NCBI RefSeq assembly: GCF_030296755.1
Contig: NZ_AP027741.1
Span: 1,829,475 to 1,861,474 of the forward strand
DNA: 32,000 bases
DNA from: Methylophaga marina
Lineage (GTDB): Bacteria; Pseudomonadota; Gammaproteobacteria; Nitrosococcales; Methylophagaceae
Reading direction: 5' to 3'
The notes beneath the pieces are model-generated. The model made no database searches and was not told the origin of the DNA. It saw only the letters and a program-made list of their open reading frames with translations. The translations under genes were made by a program, and so were the position numbers. The first letter of the stretch is position 1. The number at the start of each line of letters is the position of its first letter. This document shows positions 3,563 to 17,342 of the stretch, piece by piece.

Positions 3563-3573
3563 TTTTCTAATCC

Positions 3574-4209
3574 TTATGCTGCGTCAACTAATGCACGCAG
3601 TTCTTTTGCAGATTCAGCTGGAGATGGAGCGCCGTAGATAGCCGCACCAACAACAACGATGTCAGCACCAGCTTGAACTGTGCTTTGGATTGTATCTTTG
3701 TTGATACCACCAGCAACAGAAACTTTAACGTTCAGACCTAAACCAGCGATAGTTTTCAGATCTTCAAAAGGTGTTTGACCAGCAGCTTGTGCGTCAAGAC
3801 CAGTGTGAACACCAATGATGTGTGCACCGTTAGAAGCCGCTTCTTTAGCAACAGCCGCTTTATCTTCAACACCGATTAAATCGATTTGAGCTTCAGCGTT
3901 ATTTGCGTTAGCAGCTTTGATAACGCCTTTCATTGTAGCCATGTCAGAAGCACCTAAAACTGTAGTGATGTCACCACCAGCTTCAAAGAAAGGAGTCGCT
4001 TCGTATTCACCAGCGTCCATTGTTTTCAGGTCAACCAGGATTTTTTTGTCTGGGTGAGCTGCTTTCAATGCCTTAACCAGTTTCAGACCGTTGTATTTGA
4101 TACAAGGTGTACCGATTTCAAGGATATCGACATATGGCGCTACTTGTTCAGCCAGAGCCATTGTTGCGTCAAAGTCCAATGAGTCAAGAGCCATTTGGAT
4201 TTCAGCCAT
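3574..4209 (-). CDS. hxlA: 3-hexulose-6-phosphate synthase (HPS), copy 1
   Basis: 211-aa OMP-decarboxylase-fold protein. It carries QMALDSLD, ILEIGTP, VDLKTMDAG, GVHTGLDAQ and VAGGI motifs typical of HPS, has an AGGAG RBS, and is paired with phi. Confidence 0.9.
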   Translation of the reverse strand: MAEIQMALDSLDFDATMALAEQVAPYVDILEIGTPCIKYNGLKLVKALKAAHPDKKILVDLKTMDAGEYEATPFFEAGGDITTVLGASDMATMKGVIKAANANNAEAQIDLIGVEDKAAVAKEAASNGAHIIGVHTGLDAQAAGQTPFEDLKTIAGLGLNVKVSVAGGINKDTIQSTVQAGADIVVVGAAIYGAPSPAESAKELRALVDAA

Positions 4210-4375: not shown

Positions 4376-5359
4376 TTAGCTTTCCAGTTCTGCAAGACGG
4401 TTAGCCAGTAACTCTTCAAGTGTTTCAAGAGCTTTAGCAAAACCATCAATACCTTCTTGTAATTTTTCAGTCGCCATGCGGTCTTCAGCATGCATAGCTT
4501 TGAAGGTTTCTTCTGTCATGTTGATACGTTCAACATCCGATGCTTTCGCATCTTCAACATTTAACTTACGTGGTAAGTCACCTTCTGTTGAATGTAATTC
4601 ATCCAGTAGGGCTGGAGAAATAGTGAGAAGGTCAACACCTGCTAACTCAGTGATTTCACCGACATTACGGAAGCTCGCGCCCATTACTTCGGTTTCTAAA
4701 CCAAACTTCTTGAAGTAGTTATAGATTTGAGTAACAGAAACAACACCTGGATCTTCAGCTGGCTCGTAAGAATCACGGCCTGTGTCTTTTTTGTACCAGT
4801 CGAGAATACGGCCAACGAAAGGTGAAATCAGTTGGATACCATTTTCGCCACAAGCTACCGCTTGGTGCAGACCAAAGACTAGAGTCAAGTTGGTGTGAAT
4901 ACCTTCTTCTTCCAGAACTTTAGCAGCCATTACACCTTCCCAGGTTGCTGCGATTTTGATAAGGATACGCTCACGTGAAACGCCTGCTGCTTCGTATTGA
5001 GCAATCAGGTCACGACCTTTAGCGATAGTTGCTTCAGTATCAAATGACAAACGCGCATCAACTTCTGTAGATACACGACCTGGAACGATATCCAGAATTT
5101 TCAGACCAAATGAAACAGCTAAACGGTCAAAAGCCAGAGAAACTACTTCTGACGCGGGTGCATCTGCACCTAATGTTTCACGAGCCGCTTTCAATGTGTC
5201 ATCAACAATACCTTGGTATTGTGGCATTTGAGCTGCAGCAGTAATCAGTGAAGGGTTAGTTGTAGCATCACGAGGTGTAAATTTTTCGATAGCTTGAATA
5301 TCACCAGTATCGGCGACAACAACGGTCATTTCCTTAAGCTGATCAAGTAAAGTAGCCAT
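4376..5359 (-). CDS. tal: Transaldolase (TalB-type)
   Basis: 327 aa with [34 protein letters not shown] and [10 protein letters not shown] motifs typical of class I transaldolase. Confidence 0.9.
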
Positions 5360-6113: not shown

Positions 6114-6138
6114 ATTTTCTTCTTTAAGCAATATTTGC

Positions 6139-6780
6139 TTATGCTGCGTCAACTAAAGCACGTAATTCTTTAGCTGCTTCAGCTGGAGAATCCGCACCGT
6201 AGATTGCTGCACCAACAACAACGATTGTTGCGCCAGCACGAACAGTGTCTTGAATAGTGTTTTTGTTCAGACCACCAGCTACTGAAATACGCACGCCTAA
6301 GTTTAAGCTAGCGATATCTTTCAGATCAGCGAAAGGTGTTTGACCAGCAGCTTGTGCGTCAAGACCAGTGTGAACACCGATGATTTGAGCACCGTTACGA
6401 GCTGCTTCAGTTGCAACTGCTTTTTTGTCTTTAACACTGATTAAGTCGATTTGAGCTTCAGCGTTGTTAGCGTTAGCTGCTTTGATTACGCCGCCCATTG
6501 TCGCTTTGTCAGAAACACCTAATACTGTACAGATGTCAGCACCTGCTTCATAGAATGGAGTCGCTTCGTATTCACCAGCGTCCATTGTTTTCAGGTCAAC
6601 CAGGATCAGGTTGTTAGGGAATTTGCTTTTCAGTGCAGTAACCAGTTCAAGACCGTTATATTTAATGCAAGGTGTACCGATTTCTAAGATATCGACATAA
6701 GGAGCAACTTGCTCTGCAAGCGCGATTGTTTGATCGAAATCCAGAGAATCCAGTGCCATTTGAATAAGTGCTTTTGCCAT
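6139..6780 (-). CDS. hxlA: 3-hexulose-6-phosphate synthase (HPS), copy 2 (monocistronic paralogue)
   Basis: 213 aa. By eye it is identical to copy 1 at roughly four-fifths of residues, with long identical blocks (VAPYVDILEIGTPCIKYNGL, VDLKTMDAGEYEATPF, KAANANNAEAQIDLI, IIGVHTGLDAQAAGQTPF, AKELRALVDAA). Confidence 0.9.
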   Translation of the reverse strand: MAKALIQMALDSLDFDQTIALAEQVAPYVDILEIGTPCIKYNGLELVTALKSKFPNNLILVDLKTMDAGEYEATPFYEAGADICTVLGVSDKATMGGVIKAANANNAEAQIDLISVKDKKAVATEAARNGAQIIGVHTGLDAQAAGQTPFADLKDIASLNLGVRISVAGGLNKNTIQDTVRAGATIVVVGAAIYGADSPAEAAKELRALVDAA

Positions 6781-7843: not shown

Positions 7844-8830
7844 ATGAAAAAATTAATCAATGCTGTGGACAGTGTGCTTGAGGAGAGTTTGAGTGGGTTT
7901 GCTAGAGCACACAGCGATATTATTCAATTCAATCAACAACCCCACTTTGTTAGTCGAAAAAATAAGTCTGAAAATAAAGTCGCTCTGATTTCTGGTGGTG
8001 GTGCTGGTCATGAACCATTACATACTGGATTGGTGGGAAAAGGCATGCTAGATGCGGCTTGTCCTGGACAGGTGTTTACATCACCTACTCCTGACCAAAT
8101 GATGATGGCTGCTCAGACTGTTGAAGCGGGTGCTGGCGTGTTGTTTATTGTTAAAAATTATGCCGGTGATGTGATGAATTTTGAAATTGCGGCCGAAATG
8201 TTGGATTGCCCACATGAAACTGTACTGGTGAATGATGACGTATCCTTACCCAAAGATCACAGTACTGGCCGTCGAGGTGTCGCAGGGACATTAATTGTAG
8301 AAAAAATCGTCGGTGCGGCTGCAGAAGCAGGCGCTGATCTAGCCACTTGTAAAAAGCTGGGTGACAAAGTCGTCAATGCCACAGCGTCGATGGGATTGGC
8401 TTTAACGAGTTGTACGGTACCTGCCTTGGGTCAACCCACTTTTGATATTACAGATAATGAAGTCGAAATGGGGGTTGGGATTCATGGTGAGCGCGGTCGT
8501 GAAATCATGAACTTAACGACTGCTGATGAGTTAGTTCAGATACTGGCTAAAGCGATTGATGAGGATTTGCAGCCGGCGAAAGGACAGCGCGTGTTACTAC
8601 ATGTGAATGGCTTTGGGGCGACACCATTAATGGAGCTGTACCTAGTCTATGATATCGCTGCTCATTTTTTTGAGGAGCGTGGTATAGAAATTGTGCGTTC
8701 ACTGGTAGGCAACTACACCACTTCACTAGATATGGCGGGTTGCTCAATTACGCTAACATTGATGGATGACGAAATGCTGCAGTATTGGGATGCACCTGTA
8801 CATACGGCGGCATTACGTTGGGGGATTTAG
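7844..8830 (+). CDS. dhaK: Dihydroxyacetone kinase, DhaK (dihydroxyacetone-binding) subunit
   Basis: 328 aa with SGGGAGHEP, NYAGDVMNF and GVGIHGERG (hemiaminal His) motifs. It has an AGGAAG RBS. Confidence 0.9.
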   Translation: MKKLINAVDSVLEESLSGFARAHSDIIQFNQQPHFVSRKNKSENKVALISGGGAGHEPLHTGLVGKGMLDAACPGQVFTSPTPDQMMMAAQTVEAGAGVLFIVKNYAGDVMNFEIAAEMLDCPHETVLVNDDVSLPKDHSTGRRGVAGTLIVEKIVGAAAEAGADLATCKKLGDKVVNATASMGLALTSCTVPALGQPTFDITDNEVEMGVGIHGERGREIMNLTTADELVQILAKAIDEDLQPAKGQRVLLHVNGFGATPLMELYLVYDIAAHFFEERGIEIVRSLVGNYTTSLDMAGCSITLTLMDDEMLQYWDAPVHTAALRWGI

Positions 8831-9486
8831 TTTTTACTTAACTCATCAGCAATGACGCAAAGAATAAGTTGTGATGTACGAGCGCCTGCATCGATGTGAC
8901 CGCGGGCGCGTTCACCCAAAAATGAGGCTCTTCCTTTTGTGGCCAGCATGTCTTTAGTTGATTGCATACCTTGTGTAGCGGCTGTTTTCATATTACTTAG
9001 AACCGTCGCTTTGTCTGCATTTTGTTCAGCATCACTTTGCAATGATTGCATCACTGGAATCAGGGTATCCAGCATGGTTTTTTCACCGATATCGGCCTTT
9101 CCTCGCGCTTTTATTGACTCAACACCCGCTGAGTAAATAGTGGAAACGGCTGTCAGATCCATATCTGGATCTTTAGCGGCTTTCCCCATACTCACAAACA
9201 TGGAACCCAGCAATGAGCCTGATGCGCCACCCATAGTAGACATTAGAGTCATACCCATTTTCATGAATGCTGCTGACCAATCAAGTTGAATCAGTTCATC
9301 ATTTTGCTTAGTCAAGGCCTCAAGTCCACGTAATAGGTTGGTGACATGGTCACCATCACCAATGGCTCGATCCAACGCAGAAATCTCCGCTTCATTGTTA
9401 ATTATTTCAGATTGAATTGCAGCGAGAAGAGTGGGGAGAAAAGTGGTATCAGTCATGTTTAGGCCAGTGAGTTTATCGCAGATCAT
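8827..9486 (-). CDS. dhaL: Dihydroxyacetone kinase, DhaL (nucleotide-binding) subunit
   Basis: Contains the LDRAIGDGDH Mg/ADP-binding motif and an all-helical DhaL-sized body. The start is uncertain (9486, or the ATG at 9456 giving MTDTTF...). Its stop overlaps the dhaK stop on the opposite strand. Confidence 0.8.
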   Translation of the reverse strand: MICDKLTGLNMTDTTFLPTLLAAIQSEIINNEAEISALDRAIGDGDHVTNLLRGLEALTKQNDELIQLDWSAAFMKMGMTLMSTMGGASGSLLGSMFVSMGKAAKDPDMDLTAVSTIYSAGVESIKARGKADIGEKTMLDTLIPVMQSLQSDAEQNADKATVLSNMKTAATQGMQSTKDMLATKGRASFLGERARGHIDAGARTSQLILCVIADELSKN

Positions 9487-9531: not shown

Positions 9532-9981
9532 TTATGTTTGCTTCGGAGGTAACGGGTGGATGGGGGGAATGATATCGGCGTTCAATAATAAGCGCCCATA
9601 CACCACACCTCGCAGTGTAATCATTTTGTCGGCGATCATGTTCAGGCGATTAGCTGGGCCTTGAACCAGAATGACTGACAGTGTGTTGGTATGGGTTAAA
9701 TTGACATTGAGGTTACTGATGACCTCATCAATGTATTCATATTGCAGATCATGAAGACGTTTTTGCAGGCCGGGTACGGAATGATTGTAAACCAGATTAA
9801 CGGTGCCGGTCATGACAGTATCACCCTGCTGGGCGCGATGTTCATTGATTTGTAAATTTATCATGTCACAAATAGCCTGAGAGCGACTTTCAAACCCCCG
9901 TTTACTGACCATTTCATCTAAACCTTCCAGCAGACTTTCAGGTAATGAGATACTGATACGACTGACTTTTTCTTTGCTCAT
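9532..9981 (-). CDS. NikR-family (ribbon-helix-helix + ACT-like domain) transcriptional regulator lacking the canonical Ni-binding residues
   Basis: The N-terminus RISISLPESLLEGLDEMVSKRGFESRSQAICDMI is an RHH motif. The C-terminal domain is collinear with E. coli NikR, but positions equivalent to H76/H87/H89/C95 read Y/N/N/T. Confidence 0.75.
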   Translation of the reverse strand: MSKEKVSRISISLPESLLEGLDEMVSKRGFESRSQAICDMINLQINEHRAQQGDTVMTGTVNLVYNHSVPGLQKRLHDLQYEYIDEVISNLNVNLTHTNTLSVILVQGPANRLNMIADKMITLRGVVYGRLLLNADIIPPIHPLPPKQT

Positions 9982-10066
9982 GCGAACTCCTGAAGTTTGT
10001 CATCATTATTGTCTGAATGGACAAGACTATCACCCAGGCTAAAACCGGGGTGATGTCACCTGATTT

Positions 10067-11436
10067 TTAGAACAAGTGGCTATAGCGCTCCACTTCCCAT
10101 GCACTAACCACAGTGTGGTATTCATTCCACTCAGCTTGTTTGTAACGAATAAATTCGTTTCTCAGCTCACTACCCAGGACTTCTTCCATAAACGGATCAG
10201 CAGCAAATGCCTGAATGGCTTCGTCCAGCGTTCTGGGTAAGAATTGAATGCCTAATTCCTCACGTTCTGCTTCAGTTAATTCATACAGATTACGTTCCTG
10301 AGGTTTACCAGGATCTAGGCCTTCTTTGATACCTTCTAGACCAGCTGCGAGCACCAGAGCGGCTGCAAGGTATGGATTGACAGCGCCATCGGCATTGCGT
10401 GATTCACAGCGACCACCACCCATCGGCACCCGAACTGAGTTGGTACGGTTATTCGAGCCAAACGAGTTAAATACCGGTGCCCAAGTGAAGTAAGGCATAT
10501 CACCCTGGCGAACCAGTCGTTTGTATGAGTTTACGGTTGGCGCAAACACCGCACATAAAGCGGGCCCGTGTTTTAATACACCGGCAATGAACTGATAGCC
10601 TAATTTGGTTAAGCCGAGGCCATGCTCATCTTCTTCAGGTTTGCACTGGAAAAGGTTAGCTCCAGTCTCCAAATCATAAAGCGACATATTAAAGTGAGCG
10701 CCTGTTCCAGTTTTATTTGAGAAGGGTTTAGGCATGAATGTCGCTAACAAATCTTCTTGTTTCGCATATTCTTTTGCCATCATCTTCAAGAAAGTAAAGC
10801 GATCGCAGCTGGTAATGGCATCAGCGTAGTTAAAGTCGAACTCGAACTGTGCATTGGCATCTTCATGATCGAAGGAGTAAAGCCCCCAACCCAGATCATC
10901 AATGCTAGTGGCCATTTTGTCTAACCAGCTAAAATTACTTAAAAAAGCGCGAGTGTCATAACATGGTTTTTTCAATTTATCATCTGGATCAGGCACAGAC
11001 AGGGTGCCATCTTCATTTTTTTCACCAGGTAAACTTCTGCTTCAATACCCAGATTCATGCCATAACCGAGCTCTTTTGCTTGTTCCAGTACAGATTTGAG
11101 TAAAACACGAGTACTGAGCATATACGGTTTTTTGTATAGGGTATTATCGGCTGGCATCCAGGCAATTTCTGGTTGCCATGGTAGTTGAATAATATGATCT
11201 AAATCTGGCACAGAGGCGATTTCATCATCATTTGGCTGCTGTCCCAAACCATCGACAGCATAACCGGTATAAAGCTCAGAGCCATGTGCCATATGATGTA
11301 AATGCGAGAGCGGGACAACTTTACCTTTCGGTACGCCATGGATATCCACATACGTACCCATGCAGTATTTCACGCCTTTGCTTTTTAATTCTTCTTGTAT
11401 TTTTCTGATTTCATCATCAGTTTTGATGTTAATCAT
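10067..11436 (-). pseudogene. Glutamine synthetase-family ligase (GlnA-like / gamma-glutamyl-amine synthetase-like), frame broken by a 1-nt deletion in an A7/T7 run (11016-11022)
   Basis: ORFs 10972..11436 (GS beta-grasp N-domain: [19 protein letters not shown]) and 10067..10996 (GS catalytic domain: [24 protein letters not shown]...R.E.R) are consecutive. Reading the run as A8 gives a continuous ...[32 protein letters not shown]... protein of about 456 aa. Confidence 0.85.
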
Positions 11437-11462
11437 GAGATTACCCTTCTTTGGTTAATGAT

Positions 11463-12227
11463 TTATAAGAGAGACTGGTGGTAGCTTTGATCAAGCGGCG
11501 GTTGTTCCTTAATTGCTCTCATCACCAGTTGAGATAAGTCTTCACACATCCATGAAAAAAGTGCTTCACCCTCAGCTTTTGTTGCAGTGGAGGGGTTACC
11601 TGTCACGCCATTTAAACTGGTGCGATTGACAGGATGGCTGAACACACAGCCATCAGTTCGGTCCGGATCATCTGCGTCAACTAATTTATCTTCACGCACT
11701 AACTCCGGGTGTAAGGCCATCATCAAAGCGGTTTCGGCTTGATTGGCATGCCAGTCTTCAGCATCGTCATGATGGGCTTTGCGAACACGTTCCGAAATTT
11801 GAGCGGTGTGAACCAAGCCGATCATCAAATCATCATGACGTGCTCTGAGCATTTCCAAGGCGCAACGAAGTGGAGCGGCATTGGTCACATGGCCATTGAT
11901 CAGTAACAGGCGTTTAATACCGGAAGAGGCTACCCAGTCACCGATATCGGAAATCATATCAATCAATGTTTTAGGATTGAGTGCCATCGTGCCTGGCCAT
12001 CTTTTAGAATGACCGATAGAACAACCATAGGGCTGGGTGGGTAATAAAATAACCGGTGTCTGCTTTGCTACTTCTTTGCATAAGGTGTCAGCAATAGCGG
12101 AATCCATACCACAGCCCATATGTGGTCCATGCTGTTCGGTGGCGCCTACAGGCAGTAAAGCGGTATCAACACCGTTTTTTACAGCCTCAGCTACTTCTTC
12201 CCATGTCATTTGTGCTAATTCATACAT
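11463..12227 (-). CDS. Creatininase-family (creatinine amidohydrolase-like) metal-dependent amidohydrolase
   Basis: 254 aa with the VGATEQHGPH...D and INGHVTN motifs characteristic of the creatininase family. Its ATG overlaps the stop of the upstream ABC ATPase (TAATG). Confidence 0.75.
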   Translation of the reverse strand: MYELAQMTWEEVAEAVKNGVDTALLPVGATEQHGPHMGCGMDSAIADTLCKEVAKQTPVILLPTQPYGCSIGHSKRWPGTMALNPKTLIDMISDIGDWVASSGIKRLLLINGHVTNAAPLRCALEMLRARHDDLMIGLVHTAQISERVRKAHHDDAEDWHANQAETALMMALHPELVREDKLVDADDPDRTDGCVFSHPVNRTSLNGVTGNPSTATKAEGEALFSWMCEDLSQLVMRAIKEQPPLDQSYHQSLL

Positions 12228-13135
12228 TAGAAAACGCTCCCAACTTCATCATTTACTGGCACCATGCGGACAAGGTTCAGGTGATCTTCATCATCATCCT
12301 GCTTGGGAGGGTGAATCAGTTCTTCCAGTCGTTTTTTAGTGGCGATAAATTCTGGCGATAAAAATTGATCTGGATTTCTAGGTTGAGGTACCGGTACTTC
12401 AATCACTTCTTGTACTTCGCCGGGATTGGCTTTTAGCACCAGAATGCGATCAGCTAGATAAATGGCTTCATCCAGATCGTGGGTAATGAAAAACACTGTC
12501 ACATCAATGTTTTTCCATATCTCCATCAGATAAGCCTGCATTTTGCTGCGAGTTTGAGCATCAAGGGCCCCAAATGGCTCATCCATCAACAGCACTTTAG
12601 GTTTATTGGCTAAAGCTCTGGCAATGGCAACACGTTGCTTCATACCTCCTGAGAGTTGATGGGGGTAGCTGTTTTCAAAACGTGCTAAACCAATTAAGTC
12701 TATCCACTGTCTAGCTTCAGCTTCTGCTGTGCCTTTGTCATAGCCAGATTCACGTAGACCAAACATCACGTTCTGCTTGACGGTTAGCCATGGAAATAAG
12801 GTATAACCTTGGAATACCATGCCGCGTTCTGGTCCCGGTTTATTGACGACTTTGCCATCCAGTTTGACTTCACCTTCGGTGGCTTGCTCAAGGCCAGCCA
12901 GAATGCGAATCAGGGTGGATTTACCACAGCCTGATGGCCCAATCACGCAAACAAACTCACGTTTATGAATGCTCAGATTGATATCTTTTAACGCGGTCAC
13001 CGTGCCATGTCGGCTTTGGAAGGTTTTACTTAACCCTGTCACTTCCATGGTGACTGGACGTTTTTTGATGCGGGCAAAACGGTCTCGAACAGCATCTGAC
13101 TGAACGCGATAATCGGGTAAGGTTGGTTCACTCAT
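12227..13135 (-). CDS. ABC transporter ATP-binding protein (NitT/TauT nitrate/sulfonate/taurine family)
   Basis: Has Walker [10 protein letters not shown], the signature LSGGMKQR and Walker [12 protein letters not shown]. The FQ...LFPW motif is typical of TauB/SsuB-like ATPases. Confidence 0.9.
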
Positions 13136-13144
13136 CTCGTGCTC

Positions 13145-14092
13145 CTAATTCGCTTTCTGCCAAGGGAAAAGACGACGTCCAAACCAGGCGAGTAATAAAT
13201 CAATGGTCAGGCCTAAAATGCCGATCATCATGATGGCGGCGAAGACGTTGTCGAAGTTTTTGTAGCGTGCTTGTTGGGTGATAAACCAGGTAATGCCTGA
13301 GCTGGTGCCAATCAATTCCGCCACAATCAAATAGGTCCAGGCCCAGCCAAGCAGGATGCGGGTGTCGCGGTATAAATCCGGCAAAATGCCAGGTAATACG
13401 ATGCGAAATAGCATGGAGCGATTATTTGCGCCCAATGTTTGACCCGCTTCCAGTAAGGCTGGGTCCAGTTTTCGGGTGGTATTGGCGACGATCAAAACCT
13501 GCTGGAAAAAGGTACCGATAAAAATAATCGCAATTTTTGGCGCTTGATAAATCCCAAGAATCGCCACCGCCAATGCACCAAATGCTGGCGCAGGTAGGTA
13601 GCGGAAGAACTCGATAAAGGGTTCAAATAATCGAGAGAAAAAGTCATAGGTCCCAGCCAAGACGCCAAGGGGAATGCCTATGATGGATGACAAAAGGAAT
13701 CCATAAAAAATAACCTGAATACTGCTCCATAGACTTTCGTGTAACCACAGCTCACTGCTACGTTTGGGTTCGGTGGTAAACGACGTATAGAAAGCGGTGA
13801 CAACTTCATGTGGCGCGGGCAAATAAATAGGGTTGGCCGGTATGCCTTCTGGTATGGCCTTGCCTGCTGCGGAAGCTTTGTCGAGTTCAGCATTAAAAAC
13901 CTCTTTATCAACTAGCATTCCTTCACGAAAGTAACTCACAGAGCCGGGTAAAGTGACTTCTACTTCCGGGTGCCAAATAAATGGGACATAGCTGACCAGA
14001 CACCAAAGAAGAATGGGTAATACAAAACTGCTGATAGTCACTAATTGTCGACTACGCGGCTCAAGCGGTTTATTAACTGAAAAGAGTGACAT
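13145..14092 (-). CDS. ABC transporter permease (NitT/TauT family)
   Basis: 315-aa multi-pass hydrophobic protein with an EAA-like loop (LEAGQTLGANNRSMLFRIVLPGILP). It sits between the SBP and ATPase genes. Confidence 0.85.
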   Translation of the reverse strand: MSLFSVNKPLEPRSRQLVTISSFVLPILLWCLVSYVPFIWHPEVEVTLPGSVSYFREGMLVDKEVFNAELDKASAAGKAIPEGIPANPIYLPAPHEVVTAFYTSFTTEPKRSSELWLHESLWSSIQVIFYGFLLSSIIGIPLGVLAGTYDFFSRLFEPFIEFFRYLPAPAFGALAVAILGIYQAPKIAIIFIGTFFQQVLIVANTTRKLDPALLEAGQTLGANNRSMLFRIVLPGILPDLYRDTRILLGWAWTYLIVAELIGTSSGITWFITQQARYKNFDNVFAAIMMIGILGLTIDLLLAWFGRRLFPWQKAN

Positions 14093-14166
14093 AAACAGTA
14101 CCTTTGCTATTTTCAGACAACACGATCCCCTGCCTGGTCATGACATAAAATTTCAGGAAGAGGGGA

Positions 14167-14191
14167 AGGCACCGGTTGATGACCGGTGCCT
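14167..14191 (-). other. Intercistronic stem-loop between the SBP and permease genes
   Basis: 9-bp stem AGGCACCGG/CCGGTGCCT with a 7-nt loop, 10 nt after the SBP stop and followed by a C/T-rich tract. This is typical of a partial terminator or stabiliser that sets SBP excess in ABC operons. Confidence 0.5.
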
Positions 14192-14200
14192 ATTAGTCTT

Positions 14201-15166
14201 TTACTCGCCTAATAAAAGAGAAGGATCGATGTAATTATCGACAGTCTGTTTATCGGCATAGACCTTATTGTCGACATTGAATTGATCCGCAATTTCTGTT
14301 GAACCATAAAGCGAACCAAAGCCGTCTGCTTTTTTCATAAAGCCTTGAGCTTCTTCTTTAGTCAAAATCTTAGTACCATCGATAAAGGCTTTATACGCCT
14401 CGGGTTCAATACCAACGCGAGCAGCCATGATGCTGATGGCATCATCACGTGTTTTTGGATCATTGAGGTAATCAACCGCCATATACCAAGCATCGATAAC
14501 TTTTTTCCATTCATCGCGGTGAGTTGCCAAGCTTGATGGAGAAACAGCTAACACATCATAAATAAGACCAGGTTCATCGGCACTGGTGTAAATAGGTTTC
14601 GATGCTGGCACTAAATCTAATGCCTGACCTGAGTTTGGTTGCCAAGCCCCAATAGCTTCGACCTGGCCTGATGCCAAGACTTGTGGTGTTTCATTTGTGG
14701 GCACATTCACTAGTTCAACATCACTTTCAGTCATACCGGCTTTTTCTAAACCGTTCAGCAATAATAAATGATCGACAAAGCCGAGTTCGACGCCAACTTT
14801 TTTGCCTTTCAGATCGGTAATGGAGTTAATGCTGGGCGCACCCACAATCATATCGTTACCGTTACTGTAGTCATTAATCAGGATCATGACATTTTGGGCA
14901 CCTGTGGCACCTGTGACTAGAGCGTCACCATTAGTCATCGTCACCGCATCTAACTGACCCGCAGCGAAGGCGTCCATGCTAGCGACGTAATCAAACCATT
15001 CAAACTGCACGTCCACACCAACTTTATCGAACATTTTCTTTTCGATGGCGATTTCCCAAGCCACCCAACCTGGCCAATCGCTATAGCCAATTTTTAGTGG
15101 TTCTGCACTGGCATTAGCTGAAAGTAATAAACCTGCGAAAGCAGAAAGAAATAGTCTTTTTTTCAT
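14201..15166 (-). CDS. ABC transporter periplasmic substrate-binding protein (NMT1/TauA-like)
   Basis: Signal peptide [21 protein letters not shown], then [11 protein letters not shown]...DAVTMTNGD, typical of NitT/TauT-family SBPs. Confidence 0.85.
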
Positions 15167-15183
15167 TTTAGATACCCCGGTTA

Positions 15184-15211
15184 GTATTACGATTTACCAA
15201 TTTGGTAATAC
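15184..15211 (-). promoter_or_regulatory. 28-bp palindromic operator candidate GTATTA-N16-TAATAC (NikR-operator geometry)
   Basis: Half-sites lie at 15184-15189 and 15206-15211. An inner 7+1+7 palindrome TTACCAAtTTGGTAA lies at 15194-15208. The site sits 18-45 nt upstream of the SBP ATG and immediately downstream of the sigma-54 element. Confidence 0.5.
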
Positions 15212-15218
15212 TCAGTTT

Positions 15219-15234
15219 TGCAGTAACTGTGCCA
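15219..15234 (-). promoter_or_regulatory. Sigma-54 (RpoN) -24/-12 promoter element TGGCAC-N5-CTGCA
   Basis: The minus strand reads cTGGCACagttaCTGCAa, against the consensus TGGCAC-N5-TTGCA. The GG-to-GC spacing is exact. The predicted start, near 15208, would give a leader of about 40 nt for the ABC operon. Confidence 0.6.
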
Positions 15235-15534
15235 GACCATGGGGTGTTGTATGGTTAGGAGAGAAAAACTGGTATAAATGGATGAGGCAATATTGAAGTA
15301 AAACCAACAAAAATAAGACTTTCAGCGGGTTATAGAGAATAGTAAGTGAAATGGTAATAAGAGAAGAGCTGATCTTATTGCAGAGTTTTACCTCGGCTAA
15401 TTCCAGATGCTTATGCACTAAAAAGACACGTGAATTGATAAAAAGCCCCAAAAGTGCGCGCTATTGTAGAAGCTAAATTGGAAATGATGTGTATTAAATA
15501 AAAGAGGAGATTGAGATCGTGAGAAGAAGGGTAT

Positions 15535-15566
15535 AAAAAAAGCCCCAACCCGAAGGTTGAGGCTTT
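15535..15566 (-). terminator. Rho-independent terminator of the porin gene
   Basis: The minus strand reads AAAGCCTCAACC-TTCG-GGTTGGGGCTTT followed by a T-run, about 45 nt after the porin stop. Confidence 0.8.
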
Positions 15567-15610: not shown

Positions 15611-16810
15611 TTACCAGCTGATAAAACCACCAACAGATAATACATCAACTTCATCATCAGATGATTGAAGGTGATATTCAGTTTCCATTTGTGAGTATTC
15701 AGCAACCAATTTCAGGTTAGCTGTTACATCATGATAGATACCGATAGTAGCCATTGCGTTGCTGTCTAAGTCAGCTGCACCACCACCTACTGCATTTGTG
15801 CGGTCTCTATCTAGTGTTGATTCACCATAAGATGCAGCAACAAAAGTTTGACCACCGAAACGGTAACCTAACTGTGCGTAGTAACCATCACCGTCACGTG
15901 CACTACCATTTGTGTTGAAAGCGCCAGTGCCTAGACCGTTAACGCCTTGACCTTTGCTGTCATAGTAAGTAGCAACTGCTTCAAAACCACCCAGGATTAA
16001 TTGACCACCGACAGTGTATGCATCAGAAGTTTCGCTACCTGTAGCATTGCTGTAACGAACATCTTGAGTCATACCATCTAACCACAGTTTCATAGAACCG
16101 CCGTCAAATGCTGTAGCGTAGCTTAAAGATGCTTCATAACGAGCGTCTTTTTCAAAGCCAGTACCAGTCGCTTGTAAAAAGTCATCAGAATCCGCAACAG
16201 CAATCGCTGCTTTGAAACCATTCATATCAGGAGTGGTGTAACGGATTTGTGAGCGCCAGTTAGCGTACTCATAACCCCAACCGATACGACCTAAAGAAGT
16301 TGTTCCAGTGTTTTGATCGCCAGCTGCTGTGACGCCAGTCGCACCTACACCGTATAAAGTTTGGTCTAACAGGATGTTGTTAGCTGCATAAAGGCCTAGA
16401 CCTTTACCTAACATGATTTGACCAAATGAACCGTCAACAGTTGCAAATGCTTCACGTTGTTCCATAGCGTCGTTACCGCCTTGGTTTTCGTTGAAGTAGC
16501 TGCCATTGTTAGTTGATGGTGAGATAGAAACACGTGCTGCCACTTTAAGGCCATTGATTTCAGGCATTGCCACGTTAAAACCAAAGAATGTAGGTAACAG
16601 ACCGTTAGCTACTTGTTGGTTGTTTTGATCGAAACCACCGTTAGCGCTGTCTTGGTCGCTAGCGATGAAGAACTGGTTGATGTTACCGTCAACGCTGAAT
16701 TCGTAGCCGTTTTCACCACCGACAACGATTGTCGCGTTAGCTGCACCAGCAGCTGTTAATGCTGCTGCACCGACTAAAGAAGCCAGTGTTGATTTTTTTA
16801 ATAATTTCAT
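15611..16810 (-). CDS. Outer-membrane porin (general Gram-negative porin family)
   Basis: Has signal peptide MKLLKKSTLASLVGAAALTAAGAANA, alternating beta-strand patterns rich in G/Y/N/A/T, and a C-terminal aromatic residue (...VGGFISW). Confidence 0.8.
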   Translation of the reverse strand: MKLLKKSTLASLVGAAALTAAGAANATIVVGGENGYEFSVDGNINQFFIASDQDSANGGFDQNNQQVANGLLPTFFGFNVAMPEINGLKVAARVSISPSTNNGSYFNENQGGNDAMEQREAFATVDGSFGQIMLGKGLGLYAANNILLDQTLYGVGATGVTAAGDQNTGTTSLGRIGWGYEYANWRSQIRYTTPDMNGFKAAIAVADSDDFLQATGTGFEKDARYEASLSYATAFDGGSMKLWLDGMTQDVRYSNATGSETSDAYTVGGQLILGGFEAVATYYDSKGQGVNGLGTGAFNTNGSARDGDGYYAQLGYRFGGQTFVAASYGESTLDRDRTNAVGGGAADLDSNAMATIGIYHDVTANLKLVAEYSQMETEYHLQSSDDEVDVLSVGGFISW

Positions 16811-17082
16811 TCTGTTTCACCTTCTAATTGTTAACAGATTACTTTAAGTCTCTCTCGTAACCGGATATGTCTCGGTTGTTAGCTATTTTGCATATAAAAA
16901 AATCTAATGCAACACTTTTACAACAATTTTTTTAATTTTGACGAGAAAATCACATTTCTGTGTTTTTTTTACCACAATGCTTTCGTTCTCTGCTATGCCA
17001 AATAGCGGAATAATGCGTGATAGGTGTTGCTGTGGGGATAAGAATTTATTGTGGAAATTATGCAACAAAAGTGACAGGCAAT

Positions 17083-17119
17083 AAAAAACCCAGTTTCTTT
17101 TCAGAAGTCTGGGTTTTTT
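17083..17119 (-). terminator. Symmetric (bidirectional) terminator hairpin downstream of tRNA-Phe
   Basis: AAAAAACCCAG...CTGGGTTTTTT. The stem is flanked by A6 and T6, so it reads as hairpin plus U-tract on either strand. It ends 8 nt from the tRNA 3' end. Confidence 0.7.
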
Positions 17120-17127
17120 ATAATCCG

Positions 17128-17203
17128 TGGTGGCTCGACCTGGAATCGAACCAGGGACACAGGGATTTTCAATCCCTTGCTCTACCAACTGAGCTATCGA
17201 GCC
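17128..17203 (-). tRNA. tRNA-Phe (anticodon GAA), CCA encoded
   Basis: The reverse complement folds as GGCTCGA-TA-GCTC-AGTTGGTA-GAGC-A-AGGGA-TTGAAAA-TCCCT-GTGTC-CCTGG-TTCGATT-CCAGG-TCGAGCC-A-CCA. It closely resembles E. coli tRNA-Phe. Confidence 0.95.
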
Positions 17204-17342
17204 GATAAGGGTGCGTATTAAACCTTCTGACAGGTGTGATGTCAAGGGGAAATCATCATTAATTCTATTCCATACTTGTCCGCTTCAGTGGGGCATGCTC
17301 TAATGACCAGCTATTTTTATTGATTATTCAATGGATAACTGA

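Follow-up and report, generated by a model that had tools for sequence, protein, structure and literature searches.

A conserved importer, ligase and hydrolase module of Methylophaga marina with a predicted role in scavenging guanidine nitrogen

We analysed a run of six minus-strand genes in a 32,000-nt stretch of Methylophaga marina DNA (assembly GCF_030296755.1, contig NZ_AP027741.1, positions 1,829,475 to 1,861,474; hereafter the window). The genes encode the substrate-binding protein (SBP), permease and ATPase of a NitT/TauT-type ATP-binding cassette (ABC) importer, a creatininase-family hydrolase, a glutamine synthetase (GS)-like ligase and a NikR-like regulator. Comparison with related loci ties this module firmly to free guanidine, rather than to an osmolyte or a taurine-type compound, a link that we regard as well supported, and by the same comparison the locus is a stand-alone variant of guanidine-utilisation loci and not an orphan system. 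That it forms a self-contained nitrogen-scavenging module, which would both take up free guanidine, or a guanidino compound closely resembling it, and assimilate it at the expense of ATP, we hold to be an even bet. The gene association itself is real, non-random and more specific than in the initial annotation, which was made from the window alone. That annotation held that the substrate could not be read from the sequence, which is true of the window by itself, but the comparative context points to free guanidine.

Results and discussion

Conservation of the module

One genome per species was scanned with an alignment of hydrolase orthologues, yielding 80 loci, of which 52 were complete and 64 had sequence on both sides of the hydrolase gene. 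Hydrolase homologues numbered 5353 at E <= 1e-20. The 80 loci span Gamma-, Beta- and Alphaproteobacteria and Verrucomicrobia. Methylotrophs (Methylophaga, Methylotenera, Methylobacillus, Hyphomicrobium and Methylorubrum) and sulfur-oxidising autotrophs (Thiomicrorhabdus, Hydrogenovibrio and Thiobacillus) were well represented, and such obligate autotroph and methylotroph hosts fit a role in nitrogen rather than carbon supply. The GS-like gene adjoined the hydrolase gene in 62 of the 64 loci with room on either side, and the hydrolase gene came first in most loci. A full ABC importer was present in 43 of the 52 complete loci and a NikR-like gene in 35. The complete gene order recurred in four bacterial classes or phyla. 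The initial annotation had allowed that the adjacency might be fortuitous and had suggested counting neighbourhood co-occurrence; by these counts, with the pair adjacent in nearly all loci and the order repeated across four classes or phyla, it is not.

Linkage to guanidine

Clustering of the neighbouring open reading frames (ORFs) recovered recurrent downstream genes for a carboxylase (1204 aa, 1887 bits on TIGR02712), an allophanate hydrolase (809 bits) and two CgdAB-like proteins. Carboxylase, allophanate hydrolase and CgdAB together make up the guanidine carboxylase pathway in published descriptions. CgdAB-like genes were found within 10 kb at 43 of the 80 loci, the carboxylase at 42 and the allophanate hydrolase at 28. 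Taking CgdAB, guanidine/urea carboxylase, allophanate hydrolase and Guanidine-I/II riboswitches as guanidine markers, at least one lay within 10 kb of 50 of the 80 loci and of 38 of the 52 complete loci. Two loci that apparently lack CgdAB (L008 and L012) have carboxylase genes cut by the locus edge, so that CgdAB may lie just outside. Urea-type and guanidine-type carboxylases could not be separated by motif, as all of the carboxylases share the same motifs.

Riboswitches were sought with Rfam, and covariance models built from those Rfam matches were then run on all loci. The Guanidine-I riboswitch was found in 13 loci, and class I or II in 28. According to the Rfam matches, Guanidine-I or -II elements also precede carboxylase genes. 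Eight or more loci, drawn from three proteobacterial classes, have a Guanidine-I riboswitch directly 5′ of the orthologous SBP gene and hence at the head of the orthologous operon for importer, hydrolase and ligase (L018, L021, L024, L025, L027, L045, L076 and L077). The SBPs behind these riboswitches are 62-74 % identical to that of the window. No other riboswitch class was detected in the 28 loci scanned with Rfam.

The window SBP (14201-15166, minus strand) is a periplasmic protein of the NMT1/NitT-TauT type with a signal peptide and a match to Pfam NMT1_2, and the putative guanidine-binding subunit of the importer. Its best NCBIfam match is TIGR03427, the urea-carboxylase-associated SBP, at 142 bits with a cut-off of 334. 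Against the PDB it gave weak matches to SsuA or nitrate SBPs alone, and these do not indicate a ligand. A different substrate could be considered, such as urea, a creatinine-like lactam, a formamide-type amide or an osmolyte-derived amine, with the nearby guanidine genes being part of nitrogen-scavenging islands. The SBP score below the TIGR03427 cut-off, the lack of a guanidine marker in the window itself and the diversity of substrates among creatininase-family enzymes are all consistent with this. However, it is difficult to reconcile with Guanidine-I riboswitches in the 5′ leaders of at least eight orthologous operons, whose SBPs are so similar to that of the window, and with the exclusive recovery of guanidine classes among the riboswitches of the Rfam-scanned loci, and we consider it quite unlikely. 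It is in essence the hypothesis of the initial annotation. The riboswitches and carboxylase-pathway neighbours of the related loci tie the module to guanidine, and not to an osmolyte or a taurine-type compound.

Two extra gene sets were noted in guanidine loci. The first comprised a GbcA-like Rieske oxygenase, an FGE-sulfatase-like protein and a xylose-isomerase-like TIM barrel (L020, L044, L053, L054, L059, L061, L063, L069 and L078-L082). The second comprised a membrane FA_desaturase-like di-iron protein, a metallo-beta-lactamase-fold protein, a TIM barrel and an EamA transporter (L008, L010, L012, L013 and L021), and in L012 it is preceded by a Guanidine-II riboswitch (4930-4985). By analogy with MgdH/MgdL, both sets are candidates for the conversion of substituted guanidines.

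Promoter and operator

A -24/-12 element, TGGCACAGTTACTGCA (15219-15234, minus strand), was the sole sigma-54 match in the window, where 0.10 would be expected by chance, in agreement with the single sigma-54 promoter of the initial annotation. It has GG at -24 and GC at -12 with canonical spacing, and its position is conserved. At least 17 distant loci have a counterpart 57-80 nt before the SBP start, and in the riboswitch loci this element is located upstream of the riboswitch. In L024, for example, the order is the near-identical element TGGCATAGTAACTGCA, the aptamer, the SBP gene. Upstream of the -24 element, at a distance of about 190 nt, lies a conserved block (15405-15460, minus strand) that is a candidate binding region for the sigma-54 activator; it is kept in all three Methylophaga loci, in which the adjacent intergenic DNA diverges. 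At the corresponding place in other loci, 100-135 nt upstream of the sigma-54 element, NtrC-type dyads (GCAC-N7-GTGC) were found in 13 of 36 cases, compared with about 1.6 expected. The occurrence of NtrC-type sites in many related loci points to nitrogen limitation as the signal. No NtrC dyad was found in the Methylophaga leader, and no enhancer-binding-protein gene in the window. The nitrogen-scavenging logic that had been proposed for the locus is upheld.

A NikR-type operator beside the promoter had been overlooked in the initial account of this region. The candidate operator is a 28-bp palindrome, GTATTAC-N14-GTAATAC. Its only exact match in the window (15184-15211) follows closely on the sigma-54 element, between the -12 part of that element and the ribosome-binding site. 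Allowing at most two mismatches, it was found in 29 of 34 NikR-bearing loci, in none of eight riboswitch-controlled loci and in five of 11 loci with neither (background 0.0048 per window). The E. coli NikR box, GTATGA-N16-TCATAC, has the same architecture, being likewise a GTAT-type palindrome with a span of 28 bp. In two verrucomicrobial loci (L078 and L081), whose NikR-like proteins are about 41 % identical to that of the window, a box of the E. coli type, GTATGA-N16-TCATAC, replaces GTATTAC-N14-GTAATAC upstream of the SBP gene.

The NikR-like regulator and its apparent exchange with a riboswitch

The regulator (9532-9981, minus strand) has the NikR fold, with a ribbon-helix-helix (RHH) and an ACT-like domain. 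It scored 32.5 bits on RHH_1, 81.1 on NikR_C and 114 against P. horikoshii NikR, and it passes NF003381 (119.5 bits, cut-off 105). As the initial annotation had noted, it lacks the nickel ligands. All four high-affinity positions of E. coli NikR (H76, H87, H89 and C95) are replaced, by Y81, N92, N94 and T100. The cysteine ligand is missing in 44 of 44 clade members; two of the histidines are kept in most members and lost in the marine gammaproteobacteria. The name attached to NF003381, “nickel-responsive transcriptional regulator NikR”, is probably wrong for this clade.

A riboswitch before the SBP gene and a NikR-like gene were mutually exclusive (0/5 versus 20/32; Fisher p = 0.014, with no correction for phylogeny). 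Methylophilaceae and Methylobacteriaceae each include loci of both kinds, and the exchange has therefore taken place more than once. We infer that the NikR-like protein represses the operon from the operator at 15184-15211. Because its nickel site is lost and it fills the slot of the Guanidine-I riboswitch, it most likely responds not to nickel but to guanidine or a metabolite of the pathway. No protein sensor of guanidine was found in the searched literature, in which the known sensors are all riboswitches.

The GS-like ligase

The ligase gene (10067-11436, minus strand) encodes, after correction of a frameshift considered below, a 456-aa protein of the GlnT/GmaS type, predicted to be an ATP-dependent glutamate-amine ligase. 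It scored 632.6 bits on TIGR03105 (cut-off 469.6), a family that also covers GmaS, as PDB entry 7cql carries that name. The nearest solved relatives are the GmaS structures 9qur (382 bits) and 7cql (317 bits), and true GS enzymes score at most 250 bits. The GS residue Asp50′ is replaced by Thr57 and the Glu-flap residue by Trp319 in 69 of 69 sequences, as in GmaS. A plain ammonium-assimilating GS was ruled out by the absence of these two features.

The residues Gln175, Asn188 and Trp189 have been proposed to form the methylamine pocket of GmaS (PMC7948447). They are replaced by Ser188, Asp201 and Phe202 in 69 of 69 sequences of the ligase clade; Gln175 and Asn188 are shared by the two solved GmaS enzymes. 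In addition, E54 and D62, both in the Asp50′ loop, are invariant in the clade. Its members have a median identity of 70 % to the window protein and are at most 46 % identical to either solved GmaS. The pocket thus appears roomier and more acidic, which would fit a larger cationic amine such as guanidinium. The TIGR03105 name, “type III glutamate--ammonia ligase”, is probably wrong for the clade.

The creatininase-family hydrolase

The hydrolase (11463-12227, minus strand; PF02633, 249.6 bits) is a predicted binuclear metallohydrolase. Identity as creatininase, MftE or IolN was ruled out, each score being below the curated NCBIfam equivalog cut-off (131 of 235 bits for creatininase TIGR04448, 125 of 172 for MftE and 70 of 245 for IolN). 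The metal ligands E31, H33, D42, H113 and E165, together with H160 and W159, are invariant in 16 hydrolase orthologues, and these ligands and H160 align to creatininase E34, H36, D45, H120, E183 and the catalytic H178. None of the creatinine-contacting positions, which we take to be Ser78, Tyr121, Glu122, Trp154 and Asp155, is kept. Ile, Val, Thr and non-aromatic residues stand in their place, and four residues are missing from the substrate loop. The annotation “creatininase” is probably a misannotation for this clade.

Proposed pathway and its alternatives

If the module is self-contained, nitrogen limitation would cause a sigma-54 activator to open the promoter, while the NikR-like repressor on GTATTAC-N14-GTAATAC would gate transcription until released with guanidine or a pathway metabolite. 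The ABC system would import guanidine, as suggested by riboswitch control of its orthologues. The ligase would use ATP to join guanidine to the gamma-carboxyl group of glutamate, giving gamma-glutamylguanidine, an acylguanidine, which the metallohydrolase would then cleave, the likely products being glutamine and urea. One nitrogen would be captured as glutamine, with the rest left for urease or for the carboxylase and allophanate-hydrolase enzymes, which are neighbours in many genomes. Acylation would be a sensible activation of the very stable guanidinium ion, and the carboxylase pathway does likewise by carboxylation.

The order of reactions, ligase first and hydrolase second, is tentative. 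It is suggested by the consideration that, as these two are the sole enzymes of an autonomous module, the bond made by the ligase cannot be the one that the hydrolase cuts. Cleavage of an acylguanidine would suit the hydrolase because the creatininase family already acts on one, its founding reaction being the hydrolysis of the cyclic acylguanidine creatinine. It is possible, though we would not put it higher, that the ligase-hydrolase pair represents a third guanidine route, one that gives glutamine, and the NikR-like protein a first protein sensor of guanidine, repeatedly exchanged with the Guanidine-I riboswitch.

Several points weigh against a self-contained guanidine pathway. Every step of it rests on computational sequence comparison. 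Guanidine, with a pKa of about 13.6, is a poor nucleophile, and we know of no report of gamma-glutamylguanidine as a metabolite. The closest characterised relatives of the ligase use methylamine. The SBP scores far under the TIGR03427 cut-off (142 compared with 334 bits) and may bind another ligand. The window has no guanidine riboswitch, by Rfam or by our own models, and no carboxylase, CgdAB or allophanate hydrolase gene was found within its 32 kb. The statistic for the mutual exclusion of riboswitch and NikR-like gene ignores phylogeny. Finally, the classical carboxylase operon works without either enzyme (Dickeya operon, PMC5340920), and yet many genomes have the pair beside a complete carboxylase pathway.

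One alternative reverses the order. The hydrolase would be a new guanidine or methylguanidine hydrolase releasing urea and ammonia or methylamine, and the ligase would trap the amine as glutamine or gamma-glutamylmethylamide. The solved enzymes closest to the ligase are glutamate-methylamine ligases, the hosts are often methylotrophs, and the hydrolase gene is ahead of the ligase gene in most loci, all of which would suit this order, as would the proven use of methylguanidine as a nitrogen source through extra genes of guanidine operons (PMC12508155). The residues of the ligase argue otherwise. It has neither of the GS ammonium residues, Asp50′ and the Glu flap, and the pocket residues Gln175 and Asn188 of GmaS are replaced throughout the 69 ligases. 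For ammonium, moreover, the Km of RhGmaS is very high (PMC7948447), which would make such an enzyme a poor scavenger. No genes for N-methylglutamate synthase or dehydrogenase (mgs/mgd) were found in the window or among the recurrent neighbours, and gamma-glutamylmethylamide would be a dead end both in autotrophs and in the window, where no N-methylglutamate pathway genes were seen. We therefore regard this order as unlikely, and less probable than ligation first.

The pair could also serve the carboxylase pathway in an accessory role, by removing side products or re-capturing nitrogen, in which case the Methylophaga copy would work with carboxylase genes elsewhere in the genome. Guanidine markers beside 38 of the 52 complete loci are compatible with this, and the absence of carboxylase genes in Methylophaga covers the 32-kb window only. 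The pair is located, too, in the importer operon and not in the carboxylase operon. However, 14 complete loci, that of the window included, have no carboxylase genes within 10 kb, and carboxylase operons without the pair are functional. An autonomous paralogous block of ABC importer, ligase and hydrolase also exists, and taken together these observations leave an accessory role improbable in our view. The block was found in Hyphomicrobium (L030, 5617-10756; also L058 and L036), in reverse order, and contains genes for a TetR/BetI-type regulator, permease, ATPase, SBP, GS-like ligase and hydrolase. Its ligase is 49-50 % identical to that of the window and retains Ser188 and Asp201, and no guanidine marker was found near the block. 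Importer, ligase and hydrolase thus reappear together as an autonomous unit.

The ligase frameshift is a sequence error

The initial annotation had assigned 10067-11436 to a GS-like ligase. The family was correct, but this span is 1370 nt, which is no multiple of three, and it holds no single ORF; the frameshift had been overlooked. In the window the gene reads as two ORFs (10972-11436 and 10067-10996), the frame breaking at an A7 run (11016-11022). We compared the window with another assembly of the same strain (GCA_039522305.1, contig BAAADG010000002, L001), and found 0 mismatches and four gaps over 20.8 kb. All four gaps are homopolymers that are shorter in the window (G5/G6, A7/A9, T7/T8 and T6/T7), located at about 2766, about 2973, 11016-11022 and about 20953. 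The T7/T8 gap is the A7/A8 run of the ligase as seen on the plus strand. Three of the four under-calls break genes that are whole in L001, namely those for the GS-like ligase, an AcrB-like pump (831 + 179 aa in the window, 1033 aa in L001) and an aconitase-family protein (387 aa in the window, 469 aa in L001). A sister strain (L002, 97.9 % identical) has A8 as well, with an intact ligase gene, and adding one A to the window sequence restores the 456-aa protein.

The ligase frameshift is a sequence error and not biology, because A8 is read in both L001 and L002 and the window falls short in a homopolymer at each of the four gaps. Programmed frameshifting or slippage at the A7 run was ruled out on the same grounds. 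Decay of the gene in this strain by a genuine inactivating mutation would account for the two ORFs produced by A7, but the same strain reads A8 in an assembly with no mismatches, the gene is whole in the sister strain, and the differences, each of them an under-called homopolymer, also break two unrelated genes. We consider such decay highly improbable. Further frameshifts in the GCF_030296755.1 assembly deserve suspicion.

Other features of the locus

The remaining importer genes encode an ABC permease (13145-14092, minus strand; BPD_transp_1, 79 bits), which is TauC/SsuC-like and below the equivalog cut-offs, and an ABC ATPase (12227-13135, minus strand; ABC_tran, 124.7 bits). ORFs and domain profiles thus confirmed the SBP, permease, ATPase, hydrolase and regulator of the initial annotation at their minus-strand coordinates, and the TAATG coupling that it described is visible as an overlap of the ATPase stop and the hydrolase start (ttcTAATGtat). 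A terminator scan found no convincing terminator within the six-gene run. It did recover a palindromic hairpin with an 11-pair stem between the SBP and permease genes (14167-14191), a possible mRNA-stability or attenuation element.

Directly upstream of the operon lies a gene for an outer-membrane porin of the Porin_4 family (15611-16810, minus strand) with its own strong terminator (15535-15564). This placement is common to all three Methylophaga loci and was not seen in other taxa. Downstream, DhaK (7844-8830, plus strand) and DhaL (8827-9486, minus strand) are convergent and overlap by 4 nt, the usual arrangement being co-directional. DhaL shares its strand with the NikR-like gene and lies 45 nt downstream of it, and was excluded as a member of the module, since it follows the regulator in Methylophaga loci only. 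Two OMPdecase-family (hexulose-6-phosphate synthase-like) paralogues (3573-4200 and 6138-6765) share 80.5 % DNA identity, with a transaldolase and a SIS-domain gene between them, and look like a duplicated segment of the RuMP pathway. A 113-aa ORF (16904-17245, minus strand) overlaps a tRNA-Phe gene (17128-17203, minus strand) and is almost certainly spurious.

Significance

Guanidine has lately been recognised as a widespread bacterial nitrogen source, and the module is abundant, with hosts that include Verrucomicrobia, sulfur-oxidising autotrophs, and methylotrophs from marine and fresh waters. If the ligase and hydrolase do form a self-sufficient pathway, they would add a new reaction type to guanidine biochemistry and alter the way in which genomes and metagenomes are scored for the capacity to use guanidine. 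The misannotations “creatininase”, “type III glutamine synthetase” and “nickel-responsive regulator NikR” would also be corrected. The apparent swap of riboswitch for protein at an otherwise identical promoter offers a clean natural experiment in regulatory evolution, and the NikR-like regulator could yield a protein-based guanidine biosensor.

Comparison with known systems

Reviews and primary papers to late 2025 describe two guanidine routes only, the carboxylase pathway and the Ni-guanidinase, and none gives the hydrolase or the ligase a role. Nothing in the searched literature linked creatininase or GS-like enzymes to guanidine or to ykkC, though an earlier mention may exist. Nor did we find there any characterised pathway that pairs a creatininase-family hydrolase with a GS-like ligase, and the initial annotation was right to know of none. 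The two enzymes are thus probably uncharacterised, as far as the searched literature goes, and the regulator is probably a new type of guanidine-responsive regulator.

The guanidine carboxylase operons of Dickeya dadantii, Pseudomonas syringae and Raoultella terrigena run from a riboswitch through a NitT/TauT ABC importer and CgdAB to the carboxylase and allophanate hydrolase. They share the importer type and the nitrogen-scavenging role with the window locus, whose orthologues are found under Guanidine-I/II riboswitches, and in about half of the related loci the operon lies beside CgdAB, carboxylase and hydrolase genes. The window locus differs in its two additional enzymes, its sigma-54 promoter and NikR-like repressor, and an SBP of another subfamily. 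GdmH of Synechocystis and comammox Nitrospira, a Ni-dependent guanidinase, likewise provides a route to guanidine nitrogen with an ABC importer and guanidine-dependent control. GdmH differs in belonging to the arginase family, of which the window has no gene, and in needing Ni-loading proteins and no ATP.

Pairing of a GS-like ligase with a hydrolase, and activation of an amine by ATP, are also known from the PuuA/PuuD, IpuC/IpuF, TdnQ and NpaA1 pathways. In those pathways, oxidation steps stand between ligation and hydrolysis, and the hydrolases are of the GATase type or of other kinds. GmaS of the N-methylglutamate pathway keeps D177, E179, E186, Y147 and K30′, and lacks the GS Asp50′ and Glu flap, as does the window ligase; the conserved partner of the latter, however, is a creatininase-family hydrolase. 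The hydrolase in turn has the fold and family of CrnA from Pseudomonas putida, with the binuclear metal ligands, His178 and Trp174 in common, but matches the PDB sequence at 88 bits and falls under the TIGR04448 cut-off. Lastly, the window regulator has the RHH and ACT-like domains of NikR. NikR binds nickel through three His and one Cys, whereas the window regulator has none of these ligands and its clade lacks the Cys. Unlike NikR, the window regulator is found at the sigma-54 promoter of a guanidine-linked operon, where it alternates with a guanidine riboswitch.

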